Source: Patescibacteria group bacterium
GTDB lineage: Bacteria > Patescibacteriota > Patescibacteriia > UBA10025 > JAHIVO01
DNA: 64,000 bases
NCBI GenBank assembly: GCA_049325535.1
Contig: JBMOKY010000001.1
Span: 1,008,048 to 1,072,047, forward strand
Direction: 5' to 3'
The translations under genes were made by a program, and so were the position numbers. Below, piece by piece: positions 1,659-32,208 of the stretch; positions within the stretch are counted from its first letter, which is position 1; every line of letters starts with the position of its first letter. The notes beneath the pieces are model-generated. The model was not told where the DNA came from. It saw only the letters and a program-made list of their open reading frames with translations, and did not search any database.

Positions 1659-1813
1659 ATACACCAACCTTGTCACCTCACGTGTATTAGAACGTGGGGT
1701 CCGGGAGATCCTCTAAACCCCTCCTACCACACACTACAAATCCAAAGAGCAAGCGCATAGCCCGCCCGAACACCGTTATGCGGGCAGGTATTCCCCGGCA
1801 GCTCTTTTGAGTT

Positions 1814-1837
1814 ACTTTTCTTGCTGCCAAGAAACGT
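1814..1837. repeat. Palindromic motif copy 1 (ACTTTTCTTG-ctgc-CAAGAAAcGT) at a convergent gene junction
   Basis: Shares the ~30-nt pattern TG.G.TACTTTTCTTGC.GCCAAGAAA.GT..CAAT with copy 2 at 8852-8875. It lies just 3' of the NUDIX gene. Confidence 0.4.
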
Positions 1838-1842
1838 AGCAA

Positions 1843-2223
1843 TTAATTACGTAAATGCTCCCCCACAATCTGTTTCACATTCGGCGCCACGTCGTTCGGT
1901 AGATGGTGGATGTCAAGCCATGTCCACTCCCGGATGTCTGGTCCGGGCCGTACCTCACCAATTCGCTTTGCCAAATAATGCACCAATACCACCACCGTCT
2001 CGTTGTCTTTCCTGGTCATCATGGTGCTCAATGGCCGGATAATCTCAATATCAATCCCCATTTCCTCTTTGACTTCCCGTGCGGCACACTTCTGCAAATC
2101 CAGCTGGTCAAATGTCTCCATCCGACCACCGGGGAATTTCCAAAACGTCGTGTCCCCGTGTTTGTTCACGAGCACCCGATCATCCTCTATGATAACCGGC
2201 CCAGCGGCGATGATGATGTTCAT
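1843..2223 (-). CDS. NUDIX hydrolase
   Basis: Nudix box GGRMETFDQLDLQKCAAREVKEEMGI (Gx5Ex7REUxEExGU pattern). Confidence 0.8.
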   Translation of the reverse strand: MNIIIAAGPVIIEDDRVLVNKHGDTTFWKFPGGRMETFDQLDLQKCAAREVKEEMGIDIEIIRPLSTMMTRKDNETVVVLVHYLAKRIGEVRPGPDIREWTWLDIHHLPNDVAPNVKQIVGEHLRN

Positions 2224-2283: not shown

Positions 2284-3468
2284 CTACTCCATCACGTACG
2301 TCTTCATCGGGGAAAACCCATTGAAATTAACGGAGCAGTACGAGGAAGTATACGCGCCAGTGGACAGCAGATAGACGCGGTCCCCCTCTTTGATATCCGC
2401 CGGTAATTTGTATTTGAATTTTTCGTACAGCGTGTCCATGGAATCGCAGGACGGTCCGGCCAGGATAACCTGTCGGGAACACTGGGCTTCGGGGTCAGCG
2501 GTAAAAATCGGATACTTCATTGATTCGTCGATAGTTTCGATGAGCCCGTTAAATTTACCCGTATCGAGATACACCCAGTCGACGTCCGCCGTGGCTGACT
2601 TCTTGGAAATCATGACGATTTCGCTGACCAGTACCCCAGCATCGGCAGTGATGCTCCGCCCGGGTTCGATAAAAATTTCCGGCATATGATCGCCAAAATC
2701 CTCGTGGAGAAAACGAGCGATTTCCTTGGCATACGTGGCTAGGGGTTGGGTCGGTTGCAGGTAGTGCGCGGGTAATCCGCCCCCGAGGTTGATCATGTGT
2801 AGCTCCACGCCCTGCTCATGCAATGAATCAAATAAATACTTCGTCTGGGCGATGGCCGTATCCCACTGCCCAATGTCGCGTTGCTGTGAGCCGACATGAA
2901 ACGACACGCCGTAGGGAACGAGTCCCAGCTGTTTGGCGCGTAACGCCAGGCGGAAGACGAGATCAGGGTGAGCGCCAAACTTCTTCGAAAGCGGCCAATC
3001 TGCCTGCCCCCCCTCGGAGAGAATACGCATGAAAATCCTGCTCCCCGGCGCCTGTCGCGCTAATTTTTCTAGGTCAGACGACGAATCAGTGGCAAACAAC
3101 CGAACCCCCCGGTCATATGCGTATTTGATATCACGTTCTTTTTTGATGGTATTACCAAAACTGATGCGCTCAGGGGAGACGCCCAATCGGAGCACCTGGT
3201 CGATCTCATTGACCGAAGCCAAATCAAAACATGCTCCCCGCTGGTGCAGCAGGCTAATGACCTCATCCAGAGGGCACGCCTTAATGGCATAGTACACGGT
3301 GGCTGCGGGAAAGTTCGTTTTCAGCTCATCATACTGTTGGGCGACTTTCTTCAGTGATATGACGAGGAGTGGAGTGAGTTTGTCAGCGGTAAACTCCTTG
3401 ATTTTCTCGAATTCCTCGCGTGTGAGATACTGTTCGAGACGATATCCATTACCATTTCCGTTGGCCAT
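2284..3468 (-). CDS. PLP-dependent fold-III decarboxylase (ornithine/lysine/arginine/DAP decarboxylase family)
   Basis: 394 aa. Contains the YAIKAC PLP-lysine motif, and HVGSQ and EPGR-like motifs typical of Orn/DAP/Arg decarboxylases. Confidence 0.8.
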   Translation of the reverse strand: MANGNGNGYRLEQYLTREEFEKIKEFTADKLTPLLVISLKKVAQQYDELKTNFPAATVYYAIKACPLDEVISLLHQRGACFDLASVNEIDQVLRLGVSPERISFGNTIKKERDIKYAYDRGVRLFATDSSSDLEKLARQAPGSRIFMRILSEGGQADWPLSKKFGAHPDLVFRLALRAKQLGLVPYGVSFHVGSQQRDIGQWDTAIAQTKYLFDSLHEQGVELHMINLGGGLPAHYLQPTQPLATYAKEIARFLHEDFGDHMPEIFIEPGRSITADAGVLVSEIVMISKKSATADVDWVYLDTGKFNGLIETIDESMKYPIFTADPEAQCSRQVILAGPSCDSMDTLYEKFKYKLPADIKEGDRVYLLSTGAYTSSYCSVNFNGFSPMKTYVME

Positions 3469-3842
3469 TGGCGTTTTTTGAAATGTTTAATTATTTATGA
3501 CTGATAGTATAATACATCCGCGGCAGAACGCAATGAAGCGGCTACTGTGCGGTAAGCCCAGATTCCCACAAACTCATAAAAATCCGGGACGAATGAATCC
3601 GTCCCGGATATGAGCTACTGGTGCCGTGCGGCAAGAAATGCTGGAGCGTGGGGCCGCCTCCCAAATTGCCTGTACTTTGTGCTGTCTGGCGCACCACCCA
3701 TTCAACCAAAGCAGATTTCGGTTGGCTTCTTAGGCGCTGTGCTCCAGCGTGATGTTAATGCGTTTCAATAGGGTAACCCTACCTTTCGAAAAAAACGCGT
3801 CGGTTAATGTACTGCTGCTCCGTCGAAACTCACGGAACTTTT

Positions 3843-4070
3843 TTAGTATACCCTATCTGATGATGTCGGGTAAAGCGTCCGACAATACCGGTCGACCAAC
3901 CAGTTCCATAAACCATATCCGAGCAAGGATCCGGCAATCATCCCGACCAAACCAGCTGCCGCTTGTACCCATGCCGGTACAGTGCAATACCATGCGATAC
4001 CTACACCAATACCGGCGCAGCTCAATACGATGATACTGACGCGCCATGCCATATACCATATGAACCGCAT
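3843..4070 (-). CDS. Small 2-TM membrane protein (hypothetical)
   Basis: An ATG at complement 4068-4070 is preceded by GGAGG with a 5-nt spacer. The product is hydrophobic (MRFIWYMAWRVSIIVLSCAGIGV...). Confidence 0.4.
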   Translation of the reverse strand: MRFIWYMAWRVSIIVLSCAGIGVGIAWYCTVPAWVQAAAGLVGMIAGSLLGYGLWNWLVDRYCRTLYPTSSDRVY

Positions 4071-4192
4071 ACATGCCTCCAAACGCCAAAGGTAGAAAAG
4101 AACAATATTCTATTGATAGTTTACGCTATCGCAGTCACCGAAAAAATGCAAGGACTTTACAGATGCTGCTCGACGTGAAATGCTAATGGTGT

Positions 4193-4726
4193 ATGCCAAA
4201 GAATATCGAGGTCGAAATCCGCAGTTTCATCGACGACGAGCAATACCAGCGCTTGCGCGACTTCTTTACGAAGTATGCCGAGCTGGTACTGGAGGACGAG
4301 CAGGAAACCATCTATCTGCACAATGACGAAGATGTGCGATTGCAACGTGGAACATTCAAAGCAAAACTATGGATGAAGTCAGGTCAGATCCATGATGAGG
4401 CTCGCGAGGAAACCGAGGTGCAATTCGATCCGCTGGATTTCGACAAGGTATTGAAAATATTCCTGACCCTCGGACACCGCGTCAAAATCAAATGGCTGCG
4501 GCACCGCTACCAATTCGACTGGGACGGCATCAGCGTTTCGCTCGATGATACGAAAGGGTACGGAAAAATTATTGAGCTGGAAAAAATGTGCAGCCCAAAA
4601 GAACGCACTGCTGCGCTTGAGCTACTTTCCCAAAAAATGCACGCGCTGAACATCCCCCTGACTCCGCGAGAAGAATTCGACAGACGCTTCCGCGAGTACG
4701 AGCGCAATTGGCATACCTTGGTATAA
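4193..4726 (+). CDS. CYTH-domain protein (triphosphate tunnel metalloenzyme / class IV adenylyl cyclase-like)
   Basis: N-terminal NIEVEIRSF matches the ExExK motif of the CYTH fold. The length of 177 aa fits a single CYTH domain. Confidence 0.6.
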   Translation: MPKNIEVEIRSFIDDEQYQRLRDFFTKYAELVLEDEQETIYLHNDEDVRLQRGTFKAKLWMKSGQIHDEAREETEVQFDPLDFDKVLKIFLTLGHRVKIKWLRHRYQFDWDGISVSLDDTKGYGKIIELEKMCSPKERTAALELLSQKMHALNIPLTPREEFDRRFREYERNWHTLV

Positions 4727-4783: not shown

Positions 4784-6079
4784 TTAGGCTACTTCCAGCC
4801 GTCCGTCAAGAAATTCCTGATACCCACCCAAGTCAAGAAATCCATGGCCGCTGATATTAACCAGGATAGTTCTCGCCTCCCCTGATTCCCGGCAGACAAT
4901 CGCCTCATCAATAGCTGCTTTGATGGCGTGGGCTGACTCAGGCGCTGGCAATATCCCTTCCGTTTGCACAAACATTTGAGCCGCCTGCATCACTGCGGTT
5001 TGCTCAACCGCGCGGCGTTCGATGTACCCCTGATCCACTAAATGGCTGATCAATGGCGCGGCGCCGTGATACCGAAGCCCACCCGCCTGGATCCGTGGCG
5101 GAATGAAGTCTGCGCCAAGGGTGTACATCTTCAGTAGTGGCGTCATCTCCGCTGTATCACCGAAGTCATAGCGATACTCACCTTTTGTCAGGCTGGGGCA
5201 GGTTTCCGGTTCTACTGCCACTACCCGGATTGATTTTTTCCTGGTGATTCCTGAACCAATATAGGGCAAACTTATTCCGGCTAGATTACTACCTCCTCCA
5301 AAACAACCAAAAATGACATCTGGGTACGCATCGACTTTCCCCATTTGTGTCATCACCTCTTGGCCGATCACCGTCTGATGCATCAAGACGTGATTAAGCA
5401 CGCTCCCCAGCGAATACTTAGTATGTTCGTTCTTGATTGCCTCCATCGCTTCACTGATGGCGATGCCCAGGCTGCCGGGATGATTTGGGTCTTTCGCGAG
5501 ATACTGCCGGCCAATCGTGGTCTGTCGGCTCGGCGAAGCCAGTACCTCAGCGCCGAGCATTCGCATATAACTCACCCGATACGGTTTCTGCTGATAATGC
5601 AGCCGGACATAGTAGATGAGCGCCTCCATGCCGAATAGTTTTGCAGCTAAGGAGAGTGCCATACCCCACTGTCCCGCACCCGTCTCCGTCGTGAGGGTAG
5701 TGATACCTTCCTGTTTATTATAATACGCTTGGGCCAATGCGGTATTTAATTTGTGGCTGCCGGTCAATGATGCACCTTCGTACTTATAGAAAATACGTGC
5801 TGGCGTATTCAGTACCCGCTCCAAACGATCAGCGCGGTACAGCGGGGTTGGTCGATACCGCTGATACAAGGTGCGTACCTCATCTGGAATTTCGATCATC
5901 CGCTCGACGCTCGTCTCTTGTTCCACGAGCGCTTTTGGGAATAGCCCGAGCAATGCCGCGGGATCCAGCGGCTTATTCGTACCAGGATGCAAGGGCGGAG
6001 GCGGAGGCACCGGCAGGTCCGCTAGGATATTGTAGTAGTGCGTCGGCACCTCGCGTGCCGATAGAATTATTGGATTCAT
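4784..6079 (-). CDS. trpB: Tryptophan synthase beta-like PLP enzyme (TrpB2 type)
   Basis: 431 aa. Contains HKLNTALAQAYYNKQEGITTLTTETGAGQWG and GGGSNLAG, characteristic of TrpB / TrpB2. Confidence 0.85.
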   Translation of the reverse strand: MNPIILSAREVPTHYYNILADLPVPPPPPLHPGTNKPLDPAALLGLFPKALVEQETSVERMIEIPDEVRTLYQRYRPTPLYRADRLERVLNTPARIFYKYEGASLTGSHKLNTALAQAYYNKQEGITTLTTETGAGQWGMALSLAAKLFGMEALIYYVRLHYQQKPYRVSYMRMLGAEVLASPSRQTTIGRQYLAKDPNHPGSLGIAISEAMEAIKNEHTKYSLGSVLNHVLMHQTVIGQEVMTQMGKVDAYPDVIFGCFGGGSNLAGISLPYIGSGITRKKSIRVVAVEPETCPSLTKGEYRYDFGDTAEMTPLLKMYTLGADFIPPRIQAGGLRYHGAAPLISHLVDQGYIERRAVEQTAVMQAAQMFVQTEGILPAPESAHAIKAAIDEAIVCRESGEARTILVNISGHGFLDLGGYQEFLDGRLEVA

Positions 6080-6388
6080 AATGATTGATAATGACTGAGT
6101 GATTTAAAAAATACGAATACACCTGCAATCACGCCAGAAAAAAGTTGCCTTAGTTTTGAAGATAAATTTCATATATATCAATACATAACAAATAAAAAAT
6201 CGCCCTGTGCAGGAGTAGGATTTTTTTTCGAAAACAAAACCTACTTCGCTAGCGGCGACTAATTTTTTGCCAACAATTGTTTACTATCTGATGCATGACT
6301 GCATAATACATCGGATATTCCGTCCCTGTCAAATATGCCGCACCACAAACAAGCTACGTTTATCTCAATGACTGTGGATAACTTCACT

Positions 6389-6437
6389 TGACATTATCAA
6401 TACGCTGTTATAGTGTTTTAATACATTAAAACACTTC
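6389..6437 (+). promoter_or_regulatory. Candidate sigma70-like promoter (TTGACA ... TATAGT) followed by a perfect 10-bp-arm palindrome GTGTTTTAAT-ac-ATTAAAACAC (6414-6435), directly upstream of the TrpR-like gene
   Basis: TTGACA at 6389-6394, TATAGT at 6410-6415 (15-nt spacer). The palindrome is read directly from the sequence. It lies in the divergent region shared with trpB2. Confidence 0.4.
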
Positions 6438-6441
6438 GTTC

Positions 6442-6729
6442 ATGAAATCAACCCATATCGACCCACGCGCGCTCAATGACCTGTATCGCGCCATACTCCG
6501 ATTAAAAACGATTGATGAATGTAAACGATTTTTCCGGGACATCGCTACCCTCGAGGAACTCAAAGACCTTTCCGACCGCTGGGAAGTAGCTCGGCTCATC
6601 CACACCGGCGTCCCCTATCGTACTATTTCTCAGCACACCGGCGTCAGCACTGCAACTATCACACGAGTTGCGCACTGGATCAATCATGGCGAAGGTGGAT
6701 ACCAACTGATGCTCAAACGAATACACTAA
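6442..6729 (+). CDS. TrpR-like / YerC-YecD family DNA-binding protein
   Basis: 95 aa. ...LNDLYRAILRLKTIDECKRFFRDIATLEELKDLSDRWEVARLI...ISQHTGVSTATITRV matches the YerC/YecD Trp-repressor-related family. Confidence 0.8.
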   Translation: MKSTHIDPRALNDLYRAILRLKTIDECKRFFRDIATLEELKDLSDRWEVARLIHTGVPYRTISQHTGVSTATITRVAHWINHGEGGYQLMLKRIH

Positions 6730-6838
6730 CATACCTATGAATTATCGATCAAACAACCAATCTCATCACCAAAAGAATTCTTCTGTATTGAAGAGGCTTT
6801 TGTGATGTAGATTCATTAGTACCCTATGAATCGGTGAG

Positions 6839-6862
6839 CCTCCTCAGTACAGGAGGTTTTTT
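6839..6862 (+). terminator. Intrinsic terminator
   Basis: CCTCCT-cagtac-AGGAGG hairpin followed by TTTTTT. Confidence 0.55.
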
Positions 6863-6927
6863 CATATAAAAAATAAAGACCAAAAAAAACCTCACGCACC
6901 TTCACAATTTTATACAAGGAGAAAAAC

Positions 6928-7107
6928 ATGGAATCATTCATGACCTGCACACTCATGTCAGTGCAGACCATAGCCCAAGAGCTACAGCTGCCTGAAGATG
7001 TCATTACCCAACTCATCACTAAACTCACGGAGGTATCCAGCCAAAAATTCACGAACGATTCACTGTCCACGCCGTGTGCCAGCAATGGTTACGGCATGAT
7101 TCACTAA
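6928..7107 (+). CDS. Small hypothetical protein (59 aa), absent from the supplied ORF track (below the 60-aa cut-off)
   Basis: ATG at 6928 preceded by AAGGAG with a 7-nt spacer. Translates to MESFMTCTLMSVQTIAQELQLPEDVITQLITKLTEVSSQKFTNDSLSTPCASNGYGMIH with stop at 7105-7107. It lies immediately upstream of the 375-aa gene on the same strand. Confidence 0.45.
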   Translation: MESFMTCTLMSVQTIAQELQLPEDVITQLITKLTEVSSQKFTNDSLSTPCASNGYGMIH

Positions 7108-7152
7108 CCACACTAAACTCATCTTTTTGTCCAAAAGGAGATAACGACAATC

Positions 7153-8280
7153 ATGTTACCCAGAAATGGACGTGAGCTGAAAGCCATGTTGCTGTGCGAA
7201 GGAATGCGTGGTGATATCATGGTCACTTCGCATTTCGCTCGCCAAAATCCATTCCGGATGCGACGGGGTAGCCTCAGTTCCGGCGGCAAAATAAAGCTGA
7301 ACTGCGGCCTTTTCGTCAATGTCCCAATCTATACCCATCCGACTGAACTGCACGCTGTGGCAGACGGTACTGATGATGAGAAAATCTACATTTGTGCCGG
7401 CACCAAAGTGTTAAGTGGCGCCCGAGTGCTCCCCGCACCGTTATGGTATAGGCGCCGCATCAAGGACTTGTTCCTCTCTCAGATACTGACCGCGCACAAT
7501 CGTCAGATTGCCGGGGCCGTGTACGAGGGGTGCGTGCACTTCAGTCGCGGCGACCAAGGCAAATTCTGCGTGATTAACCATTCGGTGTCCACCGGTGATC
7601 CGCGGTTGACGATGAAAAAACCGGAGCTGATCATAGCCGCACTGGAACAAATCCCGACTGACGATTATGACGGCCTGACGCTCAATGGCGGCATGACTCT
7701 CGCTCCAGGCCGCGGTATGGAACTGATGGTACCGGTTGTTGCGGCGATTTCCAAGCGATTTCCTCGGTTACCGATTGCGATTGAAATCACTCCGCCTGCT
7801 GAGCTTGACTGGATTGACCGGCTGGCAGAGGCGGGTACCAGTAGTCTGATGATGAATCTCGAATGCTGGGATCCGGACATCCGGCGTCGGATGATCCCGG
7901 GCAAAGACCAGCTGTGCCCCCGTGAATCATATCTGGCCGCATTTGACCGGGCCGTAACTCTCTTCGGACGTGGTCGCGTTACCAGCTGCTTCATTGTCGG
8001 CACTGAACCCGATTATTCATTGAAACAGGGTATCACCGTCACGGTGGAGCACGGGGTCATTCCTTCGCCGCTTGCCGGCCGAGGGTTTGAGGATATTCCT
8101 GAGTACCCCTTCAGAAATGGCTGGAATTACCCCTTCAGGTGTTCTTGGTTCTCATTGATGCAAATCATGGATTTTGCCACGCGTTGCATGCGGGAGCATA
8201 ATCTGGTGTCGACTGACAAGGCTGGATGTGTCGCGTGCAAGATGTGTGATTTAATCGGTGACTTTGGGACGTCTTGCTAA
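7153..8280 (+). CDS. Hypothetical TIM-barrel (radical-SAM-like core) protein with a C-terminal Cys cluster; function unknown
   Basis: AGGAG sits 8 nt before the ATG. The central segment (DGLTLNGGMTLAPG...IAIEITPP...LMMNLECWDP) resembles the glycine-rich / beta-alpha-barrel core of radical-SAM enzymes. No N-terminal CxxxCxxC is present; instead the C-terminus reads GCVACKMCDLIGDFGTSC (C-x2-C-x2-C-x9-C). Confidence 0.5.
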   Translation: MLPRNGRELKAMLLCEGMRGDIMVTSHFARQNPFRMRRGSLSSGGKIKLNCGLFVNVPIYTHPTELHAVADGTDDEKIYICAGTKVLSGARVLPAPLWYRRRIKDLFLSQILTAHNRQIAGAVYEGCVHFSRGDQGKFCVINHSVSTGDPRLTMKKPELIIAALEQIPTDDYDGLTLNGGMTLAPGRGMELMVPVVAAISKRFPRLPIAIEITPPAELDWIDRLAEAGTSSLMMNLECWDPDIRRRMIPGKDQLCPRESYLAAFDRAVTLFGRGRVTSCFIVGTEPDYSLKQGITVTVEHGVIPSPLAGRGFEDIPEYPFRNGWNYPFRCSWFSLMQIMDFATRCMREHNLVSTDKAGCVACKMCDLIGDFGTSC

Positions 8281-8890: not shown

Positions 8891-10495
8891 CTATAACACC
8901 TTCACCATGTATGTATCCTGGAGCGTAAAACCCAACTTCTCATAATACCCCCGCACGCCGATACCCGAAATGACGGCCAATTTTTTATAGCCATGTTCGC
9001 GAGCCAGCTCTTCGGCGCGCGCCATCAAGCGTTTGCCAAATCCGATGTGCTGCACCGCTTGCCGGCCGGAATCCACCGGCATCAGTTCCCCGTACGTGTG
9101 CAGTTCGCGAATCAGCGCGGTGTCAGTGGGAAACGCCAGTTCATTGCCGGTCATGGTAATCTTCTTCTTATCAAAAAACCGTATCACTTCCAATTTCTCA
9201 GTAATGCGATTGTCCCGATCCGGCAACCGCAAACGAGTAAAGGCATAGAGTTTCGAGCGATCATTATTTTCAAAACTGAGAAAATGTTCCGTGCCTTGGC
9301 CGGCGCGGTAGATACGGTCAACGAGTTCAGCCTCGCTCTCGGGTACGGCATCGCGTACTTCCCGACACCGAATGCATTGACAGACCACTCCCTGATCATG
9401 CATCAACTGACGCAAGTTAGTCACCAAATTGCCCGCTACAATATCATCACCCGGAATATCCCGTATCAAACGATTGATGCGGACATATGGTGGAATTAAA
9501 TCTTTCTTGATGCGAACCAACAGGTCGAGCAATTGATTACCTTCATATGGTTTATATTTGCCTTCTTTATACCACTGATAAATCTGCGCGCTTTTCACCA
9601 CCACGCAGGGATAAATCTTCAGCATGTCTGGCTGGAAACGTGGGTCAGTAAACACTTGTTTAAATACCTGATAATCACCTTCGGGTGTGGCGCCCGGCAA
9701 TCCCGGCATCAGGTGATATGTCACTTTAAATCCAAAATCCCGCAGCATAGCTGTCGCCCGAGCGATATTCTGCACATTGTCGTCGCGCTTAATGAGATCG
9801 AGCACTTGTTGGTCAAGCGTTTGCACGCCGATCTGCACATGGGTACAACCAAATTCCCGCATCCGCCACAGTTCTTCTTTGGTGACATAGTCTGGGCGGG
9901 TCTCCAAAGTTAAACCAATGATACGATGCTGGGCAGTCTCATTATGCTTCTGTGCGATGGCTAACGAGTCAGCGATAAATCCGTTGGCCCCGTCAAAGAG
10001 CCCTTTGATAAATTCCTCTTGGTATTTCTCATCATAATAAGACCACGTGCCGCCCAATACGATCAATTCAATTTTGTCGGCACTATGACCGTTGGCCTCA
10101 AATGCCTCAATACGAAGCTTCATCTGCTGGTACGGGTCAAAATGCAATTGGAGGGCGCGCTGGGCGGCCGGTTCCGAGGCGATATAGCTCTTCGGCATCC
10201 GCGCTTCAGTCGGACAATAGGCACAGCGTCCGGGGCAGGGATAGGGCTTAGTCAATACAGTCACCGGCGCAATACCCGATAACGTCCGCACGTCCCGCTT
10301 GCGCAAAACCCTCAGCAAGGTCGGATCCTGATCAGCGATCGGCACCTGACTGCGGTATTCTTTCAATATCTGGGCATTGGAATGTATGACACTGTCATGC
10401 TGAGTGGCTAAGTCGCGTTTTGCTTGGCGCAATGCCTCCTCGTCTGTTGGACGAATTTTCCGCAGGTCAGTAATGTAGGATTGTGATACACTCAT
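8891..10495 (-). CDS. elp3: Elp3-family radical-SAM / GNAT protein (tRNA U34 carboxymethyl modification enzyme homolog)
   Basis: Radical-SAM motif CPGRCAYCP plus a C-terminal GNAT domain (HIGFGKRLMARAEELAREHGYKKLAVISGIGVRGYYEKLGF). The longest ORF reaches 10636, but an internal ATG at complement 10493-10495 avoids the overlap with the divergent methyltransferase gene. Confidence 0.8.
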   Translation of the reverse strand: MSVSQSYITDLRKIRPTDEEALRQAKRDLATQHDSVIHSNAQILKEYRSQVPIADQDPTLLRVLRKRDVRTLSGIAPVTVLTKPYPCPGRCAYCPTEARMPKSYIASEPAAQRALQLHFDPYQQMKLRIEAFEANGHSADKIELIVLGGTWSYYDEKYQEEFIKGLFDGANGFIADSLAIAQKHNETAQHRIIGLTLETRPDYVTKEELWRMREFGCTHVQIGVQTLDQQVLDLIKRDDNVQNIARATAMLRDFGFKVTYHLMPGLPGATPEGDYQVFKQVFTDPRFQPDMLKIYPCVVVKSAQIYQWYKEGKYKPYEGNQLLDLLVRIKKDLIPPYVRINRLIRDIPGDDIVAGNLVTNLRQLMHDQGVVCQCIRCREVRDAVPESEAELVDRIYRAGQGTEHFLSFENNDRSKLYAFTRLRLPDRDNRITEKLEVIRFFDKKKITMTGNELAFPTDTALIRELHTYGELMPVDSGRQAVQHIGFGKRLMARAEELAREHGYKKLAVISGIGVRGYYEKLGFTLQDTYMVKVL

Positions 10496-10499
10496 ATAT

Positions 10500-11219
10500 A
10501 TGAAACAAGAGACTGCACAAAGGATTGTAGAGGAAAATAAGCGGGTATACAACCGGATTGCCCGACACTTTTCTGGCACGAGGTCGCATCCGTGGGGGGA
10601 GTTTACCCTATTTGAGCCATATGTCAAAACAGGCAATCAGATACTAGACATCGGCTGTGGCAATGGTCGCCTGGCTGGCTTTTTTGAGCAAAAAAAAATC
10701 AACTATACTGGTGTGGATAACAGCGCGGCGCTGATTGATATTGCCAAGCAGGCACACCCTGCCGCTACCTTCCTGGTCAGTGAAGCGACGCAATTGCTAT
10801 TTTCCGATGGGCAATTCGATGTGGTCTGCAGCATCGCTACACTCCACCATATTCCATCACGGGAACTACGAGCAAAGGCCATCCGAGAAGCGGTCCGCGT
10901 GCTCAAACCCGGTGGTTACCTGCTGATAACAGAGTGGAACCTATGGCACCCGCAGTGGTGGAAATTGCTGGCACACTATTCATGGCGAAAATTCACCGGA
11001 CAAAGCGATCTCGATTGGGGGGATGTCGAAAAGCCATGGAAAGATGCCCGAGGAACGGTGCAGGGCATGCGATACCTCCACCCCTTTTCCCGCCGGCAGA
11101 TGGCACGCTTGTGCACCGACCAGGGCTGTACCCTCGTCTACCAAGAGTACACGACTCAAGGAGTGCCCACCCGGTGGTACCGCGGCTATAATCTGGTCAC
11201 TATCTGCCAAAAGCATTGA
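10500..11219 (+). CDS. Class I SAM-dependent methyltransferase, Trm9-like
   Basis: N-terminus VYNRIARHFSGTRSHPWGEF resembles the Trm9/ALKBH8 MTase N-terminal motif (...HFS.TR.KPW). SAM motif I is LDIGCGNGR. It sits divergent from elp3 with start codons about 5 nt apart. Confidence 0.6.
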   Translation: MKQETAQRIVEENKRVYNRIARHFSGTRSHPWGEFTLFEPYVKTGNQILDIGCGNGRLAGFFEQKKINYTGVDNSAALIDIAKQAHPAATFLVSEATQLLFSDGQFDVVCSIATLHHIPSRELRAKAIREAVRVLKPGGYLLITEWNLWHPQWWKLLAHYSWRKFTGQSDLDWGDVEKPWKDARGTVQGMRYLHPFSRRQMARLCTDQGCTLVYQEYTTQGVPTRWYRGYNLVTICQKH

Positions 11220-31803: not shown

Positions 31804-31958
31804 TTATGTAATAAAAATATCTCCGACCAAATATGGAGGAGATGTGAGTACTGCTACACTTATCTACCTACACGATTGGTAGCCGAGAATTAGCACCCGC
31901 CCGTGACGGGTTGCCGGGGAGTCACCGGGCTCGGTCCCTACTCCCACTCGTGATAAGC
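31804..31958 (-). ncRNA. SAM-I (S-box) riboswitch with an SD-sequestering expression platform, in the metK leader
   Basis: The minus-strand RNA reads CUUAUCACGAGUGGGAGUAGGGACCGAGCCCGGUGACUCCCCGGCAACC...GGUGCUAAUUCU...GUAGAUAAG. This matches the SAM-I consensus: P1 CUUAUC/GAUAAG, GGGA...GCCC...UGA...CCGGCAACC, and GGUGC.AAUUC. Downstream, AUCUCCUCC can pair with GGAGAU adjacent to the metK start. Confidence 0.8.
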
Positions 31959-32208
31959 TATTTGATTGTCAAAAGGTAGCGTCAGTATACGTAGCGCTCA
32001 TCTTCCCGTCAAGCGCTCCAAGCATTCGGCGTGATAGATGCGCCATGAATACATGAATAAGCGTGGTCCATGCGTACGCACAGAATTCCCCGATGACTGA
32101 CATGCGTTTAGCGGAATCGAGCCGAAGCAATGCGTTTGCCCGCATTCTTCCGGTGCTTCTTTTGCGCTACCTTTTTCTTCTTATTCATAATATATGACTA
32201 ATAATATG

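Follow-up and report, generated by a model that had tools for sequence, protein, structure and literature searches.

Two probably independent regulatory modules lie between a HisR-type regulator gene and a standalone trpB2 gene in a Patescibacteria genome

Introduction

Does a regulator with the TrpR fold control the tryptophan synthase gene beside which it is encoded? This question is raised by a stretch of 64,000 nt from the metagenome-assembled genome of a Patescibacteria (CPR) group bacterium (assembly GCA_049325535.1, contig JBMOKY010000001.1, positions 1,008,048 to 1,072,047), hereafter called the window and numbered from its first letter. Here trpB2 (4784-6079, minus strand), which encodes a standalone TrpB2-type pyridoxal phosphate (PLP) enzyme of 431 aa, diverges from yerC (6442-6729, plus strand), which encodes a hisR-type TrpR-fold regulator of 95 aa. 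A preliminary description had proposed that YerC responds to tryptophan or indole and acts through a palindrome in the shared promoter region, placing the salvage of indole and serine to tryptophan under repressor control. Our comparative analysis points elsewhere: the spacer quite likely holds two independent regulatory modules set back to back, one for each gene.

Results

The regulator beside trpB2 is assigned to the HisR family

In a hidden Markov model (HMM) search, the trpB2 product matched the 'TrpB-like PLP enzyme' model NF009057 with 671.6 bits (cutoff 366) and also exceeded the cutoff of TIGR01415 (612 vs 519 bits), whereas it remained below that of the trpB model TIGR00263 (150 vs 392 bits). 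By these profile scores we assign it to the TrpB2 type, not TrpB1. It sits in a Patescibacteria clade of 431-aa TrpB2 proteins with 69-100% identity. Queries with TrpA, TrpC, TrpD, and TrpE of Escherichia coli found no homologue in the window (best E = 0.32), and the E. coli TrpB query recovered trpB2 alone (E = 9e-20), which bears out the earlier statement that trpB2 stands there without other trp genes. The two genes diverge across a spacer of 362 bp (6080-6441; previously given as 360 bp) with 34% GC compared with 52% window-wide, and neither is preceded by a Shine-Dalgarno sequence.

YerC scored 94.8 bits on the YerC/YecD model TIGR02531 (cutoff 42.2) and 91.7 bits on PF01371, as had been expected from its first annotation, whereas it fell under the cutoff of the TrpR equivalog model TIGR01321 (29 bits vs 67.25). 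Its closest solved structures were 3FRW, 3G1C, and 3KOR (E ~1e-18), and no TrpR chain was found among its solved-structure matches at E < 0.01. Of these, 3G1C is an E. eligens protein treated as HisR by Ashniev et al. (2022, BMC Genomics, PMC9413887). According to the same study, yerC of B. subtilis is hisR, a histidine repressor of the TrpR family, HisR of R. gnavus needs L-His for DNA binding, and most of the residues that contact Trp are not kept across the HisR family.

To place the window gene, one genome per species was scanned with an alignment of YerC, which gave 80 comparison loci (48-76% identity; individual loci are designated by L numbers) from Patescibacteria, Acidobacteriota, Chloroflexota, Actinomycetota, and other phyla. 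The genes hisG/hisD/hisC, in some cases hisB or hisS, adjoin yerC in at least 62 of the 80 loci, nearly always directly downstream; for L030, the order hisS-hisG-hisD-hisC-hisB was verified by NCBIfam. Pfam tied four more loci to genes of HisG or HisI type, and similarity to a HisG-like neighbour tied a fifth. On this sequence evidence the window regulator belongs to the HisR (YerC) histidine-repressor family and not to TrpR. By analogy with characterised HisR proteins, its corepressor is probably L-histidine.

Some observations weigh against a simple transfer of this effector. The clade of the window YerC (the window, L005, and L085) is not adjacent to his genes, and tblastn with queries from six his-linked loci found no his gene in the window. 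The presumed ligand helix of the clade also departs from that of the family at two positions (FFRDIAT..SDRW vs consensus FFRDLCT..SERW). Because of this lack of adjacency and the two changed positions, the effector is less certain here than for the family and could be a different one.

Eight of the loci carry hisR-hisS-hisG-hisD operons, most with hisC and/or hisB in addition (L015, L017, L024, L030, L035, L056, L076, L084). They come from Gracilibacteria, Peribacteria, Buchananbacteria, and other Patescibacteria, plus one Thermodesulfobacteriota (L035), and the HisR box described below precedes hisR in all of them except L076. Some Patescibacteria thus retain histidine biosynthesis genes, with the gene for histidyl-tRNA synthetase within the unit. 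Divergent HisG-like genes follow yerC in L006 (4296-5183) and L018 (818-1552). No further his gene was detected within 5 kb in L006, and the HisG-like gene there suggests an ATP-phosphoribosyltransferase-like enzyme outside the canonical pathway.

A palindrome of HisR-operator type overlaps the yerC promoter

The perfect palindrome noted earlier in the spacer is real and slightly longer than described: the 22-nt form GTGTTTTAATacATTAAAACAC (6413-6434) extends to 24 nt (11+2+11; AGTGTTTTAATacATTAAAACACT, 6412-6435). It occurs once in the window, and 100 shuffles gave no match at up to three mismatches. Ashniev et al. (2022) describe the HisR operator as a palindrome of 20 bp, with the form cacTTTAnnnnnnTAAAgtg in Firmicutes and TGTAnTA...TACA in Proteobacteria; about half of the genomes in their study have such a site ahead of hisR. 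Patescibacteria and Acidobacteria are not mentioned there, and Chloroflexi appear only in the reference list.

A palindromic weight matrix, built and refined on the regions 5' of yerC in the comparison loci and the window, converged on yGTnTTArYRYRyTAAnACr, and the TTA-N6-TAA core of the window box is that of the published HisR consensus. A box of at least 8 bits lies within 130 nt of the yerC start codon in 69 of 82 loci, mostly with more than 20 bits. Stronger hits (at least 14 bits) numbered 87 within 160 nt upstream of yerC, compared with 14 in the remaining ~717 kb of the 730 kb searched, and about nine of these 14 are either in the gap after yerC or 5' of the gene that comes before it. 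Neighbouring boxes upstream of yerC are spaced by only 8, 16, or 24 bp (53, 13, and 2 cases, respectively). In the window, the candidate operator (6406-6435, not assigned to a strand) comprises the main 20-bp box TGTTTTAATACATTAAAACA (6414-6433, 26.1 bits) and a weaker box (6406-6425, 12.9 bits) offset from it by 8 bp. Apart from this overlapping shifted box, no second palindrome or box reaches 8 bits in the window.

The yerC promoter (6388-6416, plus strand) has its -35 element, TTGACA, at 6388-6393. It had been paired with TATAGT (6409-6414); both hexamers are there, with a spacing of just 15 nt. In L005 and L085, TTGAC and TAGTGT/TAATGT are kept, and the alignment of these two loci with the window suggests that the conserved -10 element is more likely TAGTGT (6411-6416, 17-nt spacing), within the left arm of the palindrome. 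The islands conserved between the window and these two nearest yerC relatives are the -35, the -10 together with the palindrome, and a 12-mer upstream of the -35. We read the palindrome, from motif and position, as a HisR-type operator over the -10/start region of yerC. Since the box covers this region, negative autoregulation of yerC is well supported, and this part of the preliminary description stands, with the same 20-bp motif upstream of yerC in most loci. Downstream of the gene, a consensus scan found the terminator-like hairpin GAGCCTCCTCAGTACAGGAGGTTT with a T-run (6836-6865, plus strand), which suggests that yerC would be mostly monocistronic.

A perfect DnaA-box-like 9-mer, TGTGGATAA (6373-6381, plus strand), lies 6 nt upstream of the yerC -35 and is kept in the window, L005, and L085. 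Six of the 13 perfect copies in 730 kb fall within 200 nt upstream of yerC, all in Patescibacteria. The 9-mer (TGTGGATAA/TTATCCACA) was seen upstream of the promoters of TrpR-fold genes in the window, L005, L085, L024, L029, L033, and L040, and in L177 (~1712-1720); in the first three of these loci and in L024 and L029, it stands 6-8 nt upstream of the -35. The window has four copies, with 0.48 expected. The element could be a site for DnaA or for another factor.

A conserved Trp-codon leader precedes trpB2

All Patescibacteria-clade trpB2 genes with retrieved DNA have a gap of ~280-1,000 nt upstream. We compared nine such leaders, from the window and from L168, L170, L172-L175, L177, and L087. 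In eight loci the architecture is the same: a promoter, a first upstream open reading frame (uORF1), a terminator-like hairpin, and a second frame (uORF2). In the ninth, L177, the two uORFs are accompanied by terminator-like hairpins; its promoter was not identified, and a Trp codon is missing from its uORF2.

The trpB2 promoter of the window (6303-6332, minus strand) consists of -35 TTGACA (6332-6327), an 18-nt spacer, and -10 TATTAT (6308-6303), an 11/12 match to the consensus. The layout TTGACA, 17-18 nt, TAnnnT, 6-8 nt, ATG recurs in eight of the nine leaders, L177 being the exception. The uORF1 ATG follows 6 nt after the -10 in the window, and this closeness predicts a leaderless trpB2 transcript. 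With 15 codons, uORF1 (6249-6296, minus strand; peptide MHQIVNNCWQKISRR) contains one Trp codon (6272-6270) and ends in a TAG stop (6251-6249) on the 5' side of the hairpin. Equivalents of 15-17 codons with one or two Trp codons were found in all the other leaders (L168, L170, L172-L175, L177, and L087; peptides such as MRHISNISWQKISRR, MKSIHSTTNWWILNRL, and MKFQRNTTWYWTERLS), and the Trp codons keep the same relative place, 2-6 codons before the stop.

According to minimum-energy folds of the nine leaders, uORF1 runs into a long nested hairpin followed by UUUUUUAUUU (6190-6260, minus strand). In the window, the hairpin proper spans 6260-6199, with outer stem GUCGCC/GGCGAU and inner stem AGUAGG/CCUACU, and is followed by U6AU3. 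Across leaders, an outer CGCC/GGCG stem abuts the U6 tract, and the inner stems vary in sequence between lineages with pairing kept. The 5' side of the hairpin holds the uORF1 stop in eight of nine leaders; in L177 the stop is just upstream. We read this hairpin as the putative intrinsic terminator of an attenuator. A covariance model was built from the L170-L175 and L087 lineages only and searched against the window and 24 loci (280 kb). Its only three hits were trpB2 leaders: that of the window (6194-6279, minus strand, E = 0.036) and those of L168 and L177.

The second frame, uORF2 (6104-6172, minus strand; peptide MKFIFKTKATFFWRDCRCIRIF), has its Trp codon at 6136-6134, and 24 nt separate its stop from the trpB2 ATG; across the eight main leaders this distance is 20-41 nt. 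Its peptide core, [FY]-K-[NT]-x(3-5)-[FILY]-[FI]-W, is kept across leaders (MKFIFKTKATFFW, MEFQFKTKATFFW, MKYYFKNPGKYFW, MKFRYKNKATFFW), and the codons of the conserved residues show only synonymous third-position changes, for example ACT to ACA. In a six-frame translation of 1.38 Mb, matches to the motif were limited to Patescibacteria-clade trpB2 leaders. A common hairpin after the uORF2 Trp codon was considered and rejected, as the folds differ between lineages.

Known RNA families did not account for the leader. Rfam gave no match on the trpB2 leaders at E <= 1, no significant match on the window region at E up to 10, and nothing credible in 5900-7200 at E up to 10. A riboswitch or T-box in the spacer was also rejected; at Rfam gathering thresholds, the window gave two tRNAs and a SAM riboswitch elsewhere, the latter being a SAM-I riboswitch at 31857-31959 (minus strand, 56.6 bits). 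A match to RF04312, the 'trpB ncRNA motif' (6765-6868, plus strand, 22.6 bits vs cutoff 59, E = 2.2), is probably due to chance; this sub-threshold match is downstream of yerC and ends at the terminator-like hairpin there.

Constrained folds suggest a ribosome-dependent terminator

Constrained folds of L170-L175 gave three states. With no ribosome, the full hairpin forms and the leader is in the terminator state. A ribosome stalled at the last Trp codon covers the outer stem; the 5' half of a compact terminator is then held in the middle stem, so that the stem adjoining the U-tract is removed and read-through is predicted. When the ribosome is placed at the stop codon instead, the fold gives the compact terminator, CCGCUU-UCAC-AGGCGG, followed by U6. 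The folds of L087 also lose the U-tract-side stem in the stalled state, and no compact terminator appears at the stop. L177 has an explicit three-segment antiterminator/terminator layout. From these models we read the trpB2 leader as a candidate ribosome-mediated Trp attenuator.

Several points count against this reading. The window and L168 leaders each have a single Trp codon, with the stem starting 12-13 nt after it. At this distance the terminator is predicted to persist when a ribosome is stalled at the lone Trp codon: in the window, 4-6 outer base pairs are left, and in L168 the terminator likewise largely persists in the constrained folds. The direction and the strength or efficiency of attenuation in this genome are therefore uncertain. 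Support for the hairpin comes from three or four independent lineages only. Covariation on a MAFFT alignment is weak, with 3 of 18 pairs changing on both sides (the lineages are few and the alignment is out of register), and the fold of the whole leader is no more stable than shuffled sequence (z = -0.78). Only the local hairpin, and not the stability of the whole leader, is meaningful here, and our structural reading relies on per-sequence folds and the independent covariance model rather than on the MAFFT covariation.

Comparative evidence does not tie trpB2 to YerC

We collected 80 metagenome loci of trpB2 (56-71% identity). None of the 80 trpB2 loci has a yerC homologue, none of the 80 yerC loci has a TrpB homologue within 5 kb, and no HisR box of 14 bits or more occurs in 494 kb of trpB2 loci.

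The closest relatives on either side tell the same. L005 and L085, with a YerC 76% identical to that of the window, share downstream genes with it, such as that for Elp3 (L005 also the radical S-adenosylmethionine (SAM) gene), and have other genes, not trpB2, directly upstream of yerC, with an SHMT/FolD pair further upstream. L168, the nearest trpB2 relative from another species (TrpB2 87%, CYTH 79%, and radical-SAM protein 60% identical), has the order CYTH, trpB2, radical-SAM gene, which is the window arrangement minus yerC, and no box. The yerC-trpB2 pairing is confined to strains with 96-100% identical TrpB2. In the window, the box centre is 127.5 bp upstream of the predicted trpB2 transcription start. 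These comparisons do not support control of trpB2 by the HisR box, and the pairing appears, from gene order, to be a species-level juxtaposition rather than a regulon.

It is unlikely, then, that YerC is a Trp- or indole-responsive analogue of TrpR whose palindrome represses both yerC and the divergent trpB2, with indole salvage under the repressor. The two genes are adjacent and divergent, the regulator has the TrpR fold, and a weak minus-strand promoter-like match (TTAAAA-17-GATAAT, 6421 to 6393, 9/12) overlaps the box, all of which would suit such a model. It is opposed by the HisR family of the regulator with its his-linked homologues, by the lack of the pairing in the 160 comparison loci and the closest relatives, by the lack of the box in any trpB2 locus, by the phylogenetically conserved trpB2 promoter, which puts the box at about -127, and by L168, which has the same leader without yerC.

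A further argument for the model comes from three Komeilibacteria loci (L177, L178, L179), in which a TrpR-type paralogue (1726-1998, plus strand) lies 1 kb upstream of trpB2 (3001-4296) on the same strand. A TrpR-fold gene near trpB2 is thus met twice in about nine Patescibacteria lineages, which is above naive chance and speaks against mere juxtaposition. The L177 gene, however, is of a different, TrpR-type subfamily: its score was 55 bits on TIGR01321 and 34 bits on the model for YerC, and it shares 33% identity with the window protein. A TrpR-fold regulator of trpB2 may exist elsewhere in the group, but it is not the window YerC. No operator was identified at the TrpR-type locus of L177-L179. 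The trpB2 genes there also have a Trp-codon leader, with explicit antiterminator and terminator, and the locus is a possible parallel to trpR-trpBA of Chlamydia.

Yet less probable is a cross-pathway control, in which a histidine-sensing YerC would also modulate trpB2 through a weak overlapping divergent promoter or through supercoiling or occupancy; if true, it would link histidine status to tryptophan salvage. In its favour, only 55 bp separate the two -35 hexamers, the weak promoter-like match on the minus strand runs across the box, and the arrangement is stable among the strains with near-identical TrpB2. Against these stand the lack of comparative support and of a second box and the strong conserved trpB2 promoter at least 80 bp from the box; only adjacency in this species connects the two genes.

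Very improbable is a reading of the palindrome at the RNA level, as a hairpin in the 5' untranslated region of yerC that would affect translation or the stability of the mRNA, instead of a DNA site for a protein. In a transcript starting upstream of 6412, the perfect arms of 11 bp could fold on each other, and yerC has no Shine-Dalgarno sequence, but a -10 at 6411-6416 leaves most of the left arm untranscribed, the site matches the experimentally validated HisR DNA motif, and the element elsewhere is an 8-bp-register motif that often forms direct repeats unable to make a hairpin, such as GTGTTAGTGTGTTAGTATATTAAT in L029.

Neighbouring genes

A 'variant radical SAM' gene, distantly MSMEG_0568-like, is found in the window (7153-8280, plus strand), L005 (5970-7121), L018 (1575-2681), and L168 (1321-2439). 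It is downstream of yerC in the first three, with the order yerC, hisG-like, radical-SAM in L018, and directly abuts trpB2 in L168. The gene may belong to the HisR regulon in these lineages. Directly 5' of it in the window is an ORF of 59 codons (6928-7107, plus strand) with a strong Shine-Dalgarno sequence, AAGGAG; comparison with five related loci and 14 trpB2 loci of Patescibacteria gave no homologue of it, and it could be a precursor peptide or a spurious ORF. A link from yerC to the radical-SAM gene through this ORF, or through a remnant of hisG, was rejected, as no similarity was found. A bacterial Elp3 homologue (radical SAM and GNAT; TIGR01211, 521 bits) at 8891-10636 (minus strand) is syntenic with yerC in L005 and L085.

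Stored gene calls of L086 (2348-2578) and of L180 and L181 (2349-2579) have a 76-aa antisense ORF in place of yerC, corresponding to 6502-6732 (minus strand) of the window. The regulator is therefore absent from some annotations of this species.

Discussion

We propose that two independent modules share the 362-bp spacer. In the first, a YerC dimer, or tandem dimers in 8-bp register, would bind the box at 6414-6433 and the weaker shifted box, which lie over the yerC -10/start region, and so repress transcription of yerC itself; the corepressor would probably be L-histidine, as in characterised HisR. In the second, trpB2 mRNA would start from its own promoter (6332-6303, minus strand), with its 5' end at or beside the uORF1 AUG (~6296). 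The end of uORF1 overlaps the 5' arm of the U-tract terminator hairpin, and the supply of charged tRNA-Trp would set the position of the ribosome on uORF1 and thereby decide whether the terminator forms. The uORF2 (...KATFFW...) just upstream of trpB2 may add a further regulatory layer.

This last layer invites speculation. With a small chance of being right, uORF2 might be a TnaC-like nascent-chain sensor of free Trp, indole, or tRNA-Trp charging that gates translation of trpB2, a gene lacking a Shine-Dalgarno sequence. Combined with the leaderless uORF1 attenuator, it would make up a Trp sensor of two tiers for a salvage enzyme in Patescibacteria, with no other trp gene in sight near trpB2. 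The adjoining 'orphan' HisR without a his operon would then perhaps have taken on new targets, such as the radical-SAM gene.

The first module resembles the HisR regulon (Ashniev et al., 2022) in its HMM family (TIGR02531/PF01371), in the 20-bp palindrome with the TTA-N6-TAA core, in the site upstream of its own gene, and in the fact that the gene heads his operons in relatives. It differs in its occurrence in Patescibacteria, in the absence of his genes within 64 kb, in the clade-specific substitutions, and in the flanks of the window box, which are yGT...ACr, like the ends of proteobacterial HisR and TrpR sites, and not cac...gtg. With E. coli TrpR and its trp, aroH, and trpR operators it shares the TrpR fold, autoregulation, a palindromic operator with TGT...ACA ends, and the tandem 8-bp register. 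This register is common to the TrpR-fold family and does not separate TrpR from HisR. Unlike TrpR, the window YerC scores below the TrpR HMM cutoff, its operator core is TTA/TAA and not CTAG, and it has no conserved trp linkage.

The locus as a whole recalls trpRBA of Chlamydia trachomatis (PMC7755916): both are in reduced genomes and combine a trpB(A) for Trp salvage with an adjoining TrpR-family gene, and an intergenic Trp-dependent attenuation, which is predicted in the window and in Chlamydia involves TrpL. The Chlamydia TrpR, however, is a true Trp repressor, encoded in the same operon and conserved, whereas the neighbour in the window is HisR-type, divergent, and species-specific. The Komeilibacteria locus L177 is the closer structural parallel.

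Like the attenuators of the E. coli trpL type, the window leader has a short ORF with codons for the end product and a G+C-rich hairpin with a U-tract; alternative pairing set by the ribosome is clear in the constrained folds of its relatives L170-L175 and L087. Predicted leaderless initiation sets the window leader apart from these attenuators, as do the stop within the 5' terminator arm and a putative antiterminator nested in one long hairpin; uORF1 has one Trp codon, an extra uORF has a conserved peptide, the target is a standalone trpB2, and there is no Rfam match. The leaderless polycysteine short ORFs of mycobacteria (bioRxiv 10.1101/834739) are similar in being leaderless, rich in the codons of one amino acid, and attenuating for downstream genes; they differ in amino acid and phylum, and in the window a terminator hairpin follows the ORF. 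Finally, trpB2_o of Pyrococcus horikoshii (Merkl, 2007, PMC1854888) is also a lone trpB2 without other trp genes, there in the whole genome and here within 64 kb. The physiological role of this standalone gene is debated in that paper; in the window, unlike in P. horikoshii, a Trp-codon leader would couple expression to the supply of Trp, a point in favour of tryptophan synthesis as the role of the enzyme.

Salvage of indole and serine to tryptophan by TrpB2, as the preliminary description had it, is plausible, and the Trp-codon leader strengthens this idea indirectly, as evidence that this TrpB2 makes tryptophan. What is not supported is the route of control proposed there. The locus is a warning against guilt by association: a 'TrpR-like gene next to trpB' resembles a Trp regulon, yet the regulator is of histidine type and the pairing is found in one species only.

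The interest of the locus is mainly in the conserved trpB2 leader and the 'orphan' HisR of Patescibacteria, not in the gene pairing. On the one hand, the HisR regulon and its operator are extended to Patescibacteria, Acidobacteriota, and Chloroflexota, and to further Actinomycetota, with a strict 8-bp tandem register, and a Patescibacteria clade is found in which hisR persists without an adjacent his operon. On the other hand, the Trp-codon leader is regulatory evidence that the long-debated standalone TrpB2 serves Trp supply in genome-reduced bacteria, probably through indole salvage, and it offers a cis-regulatory system open to direct test in bacteria whose gene regulation is almost undescribed.

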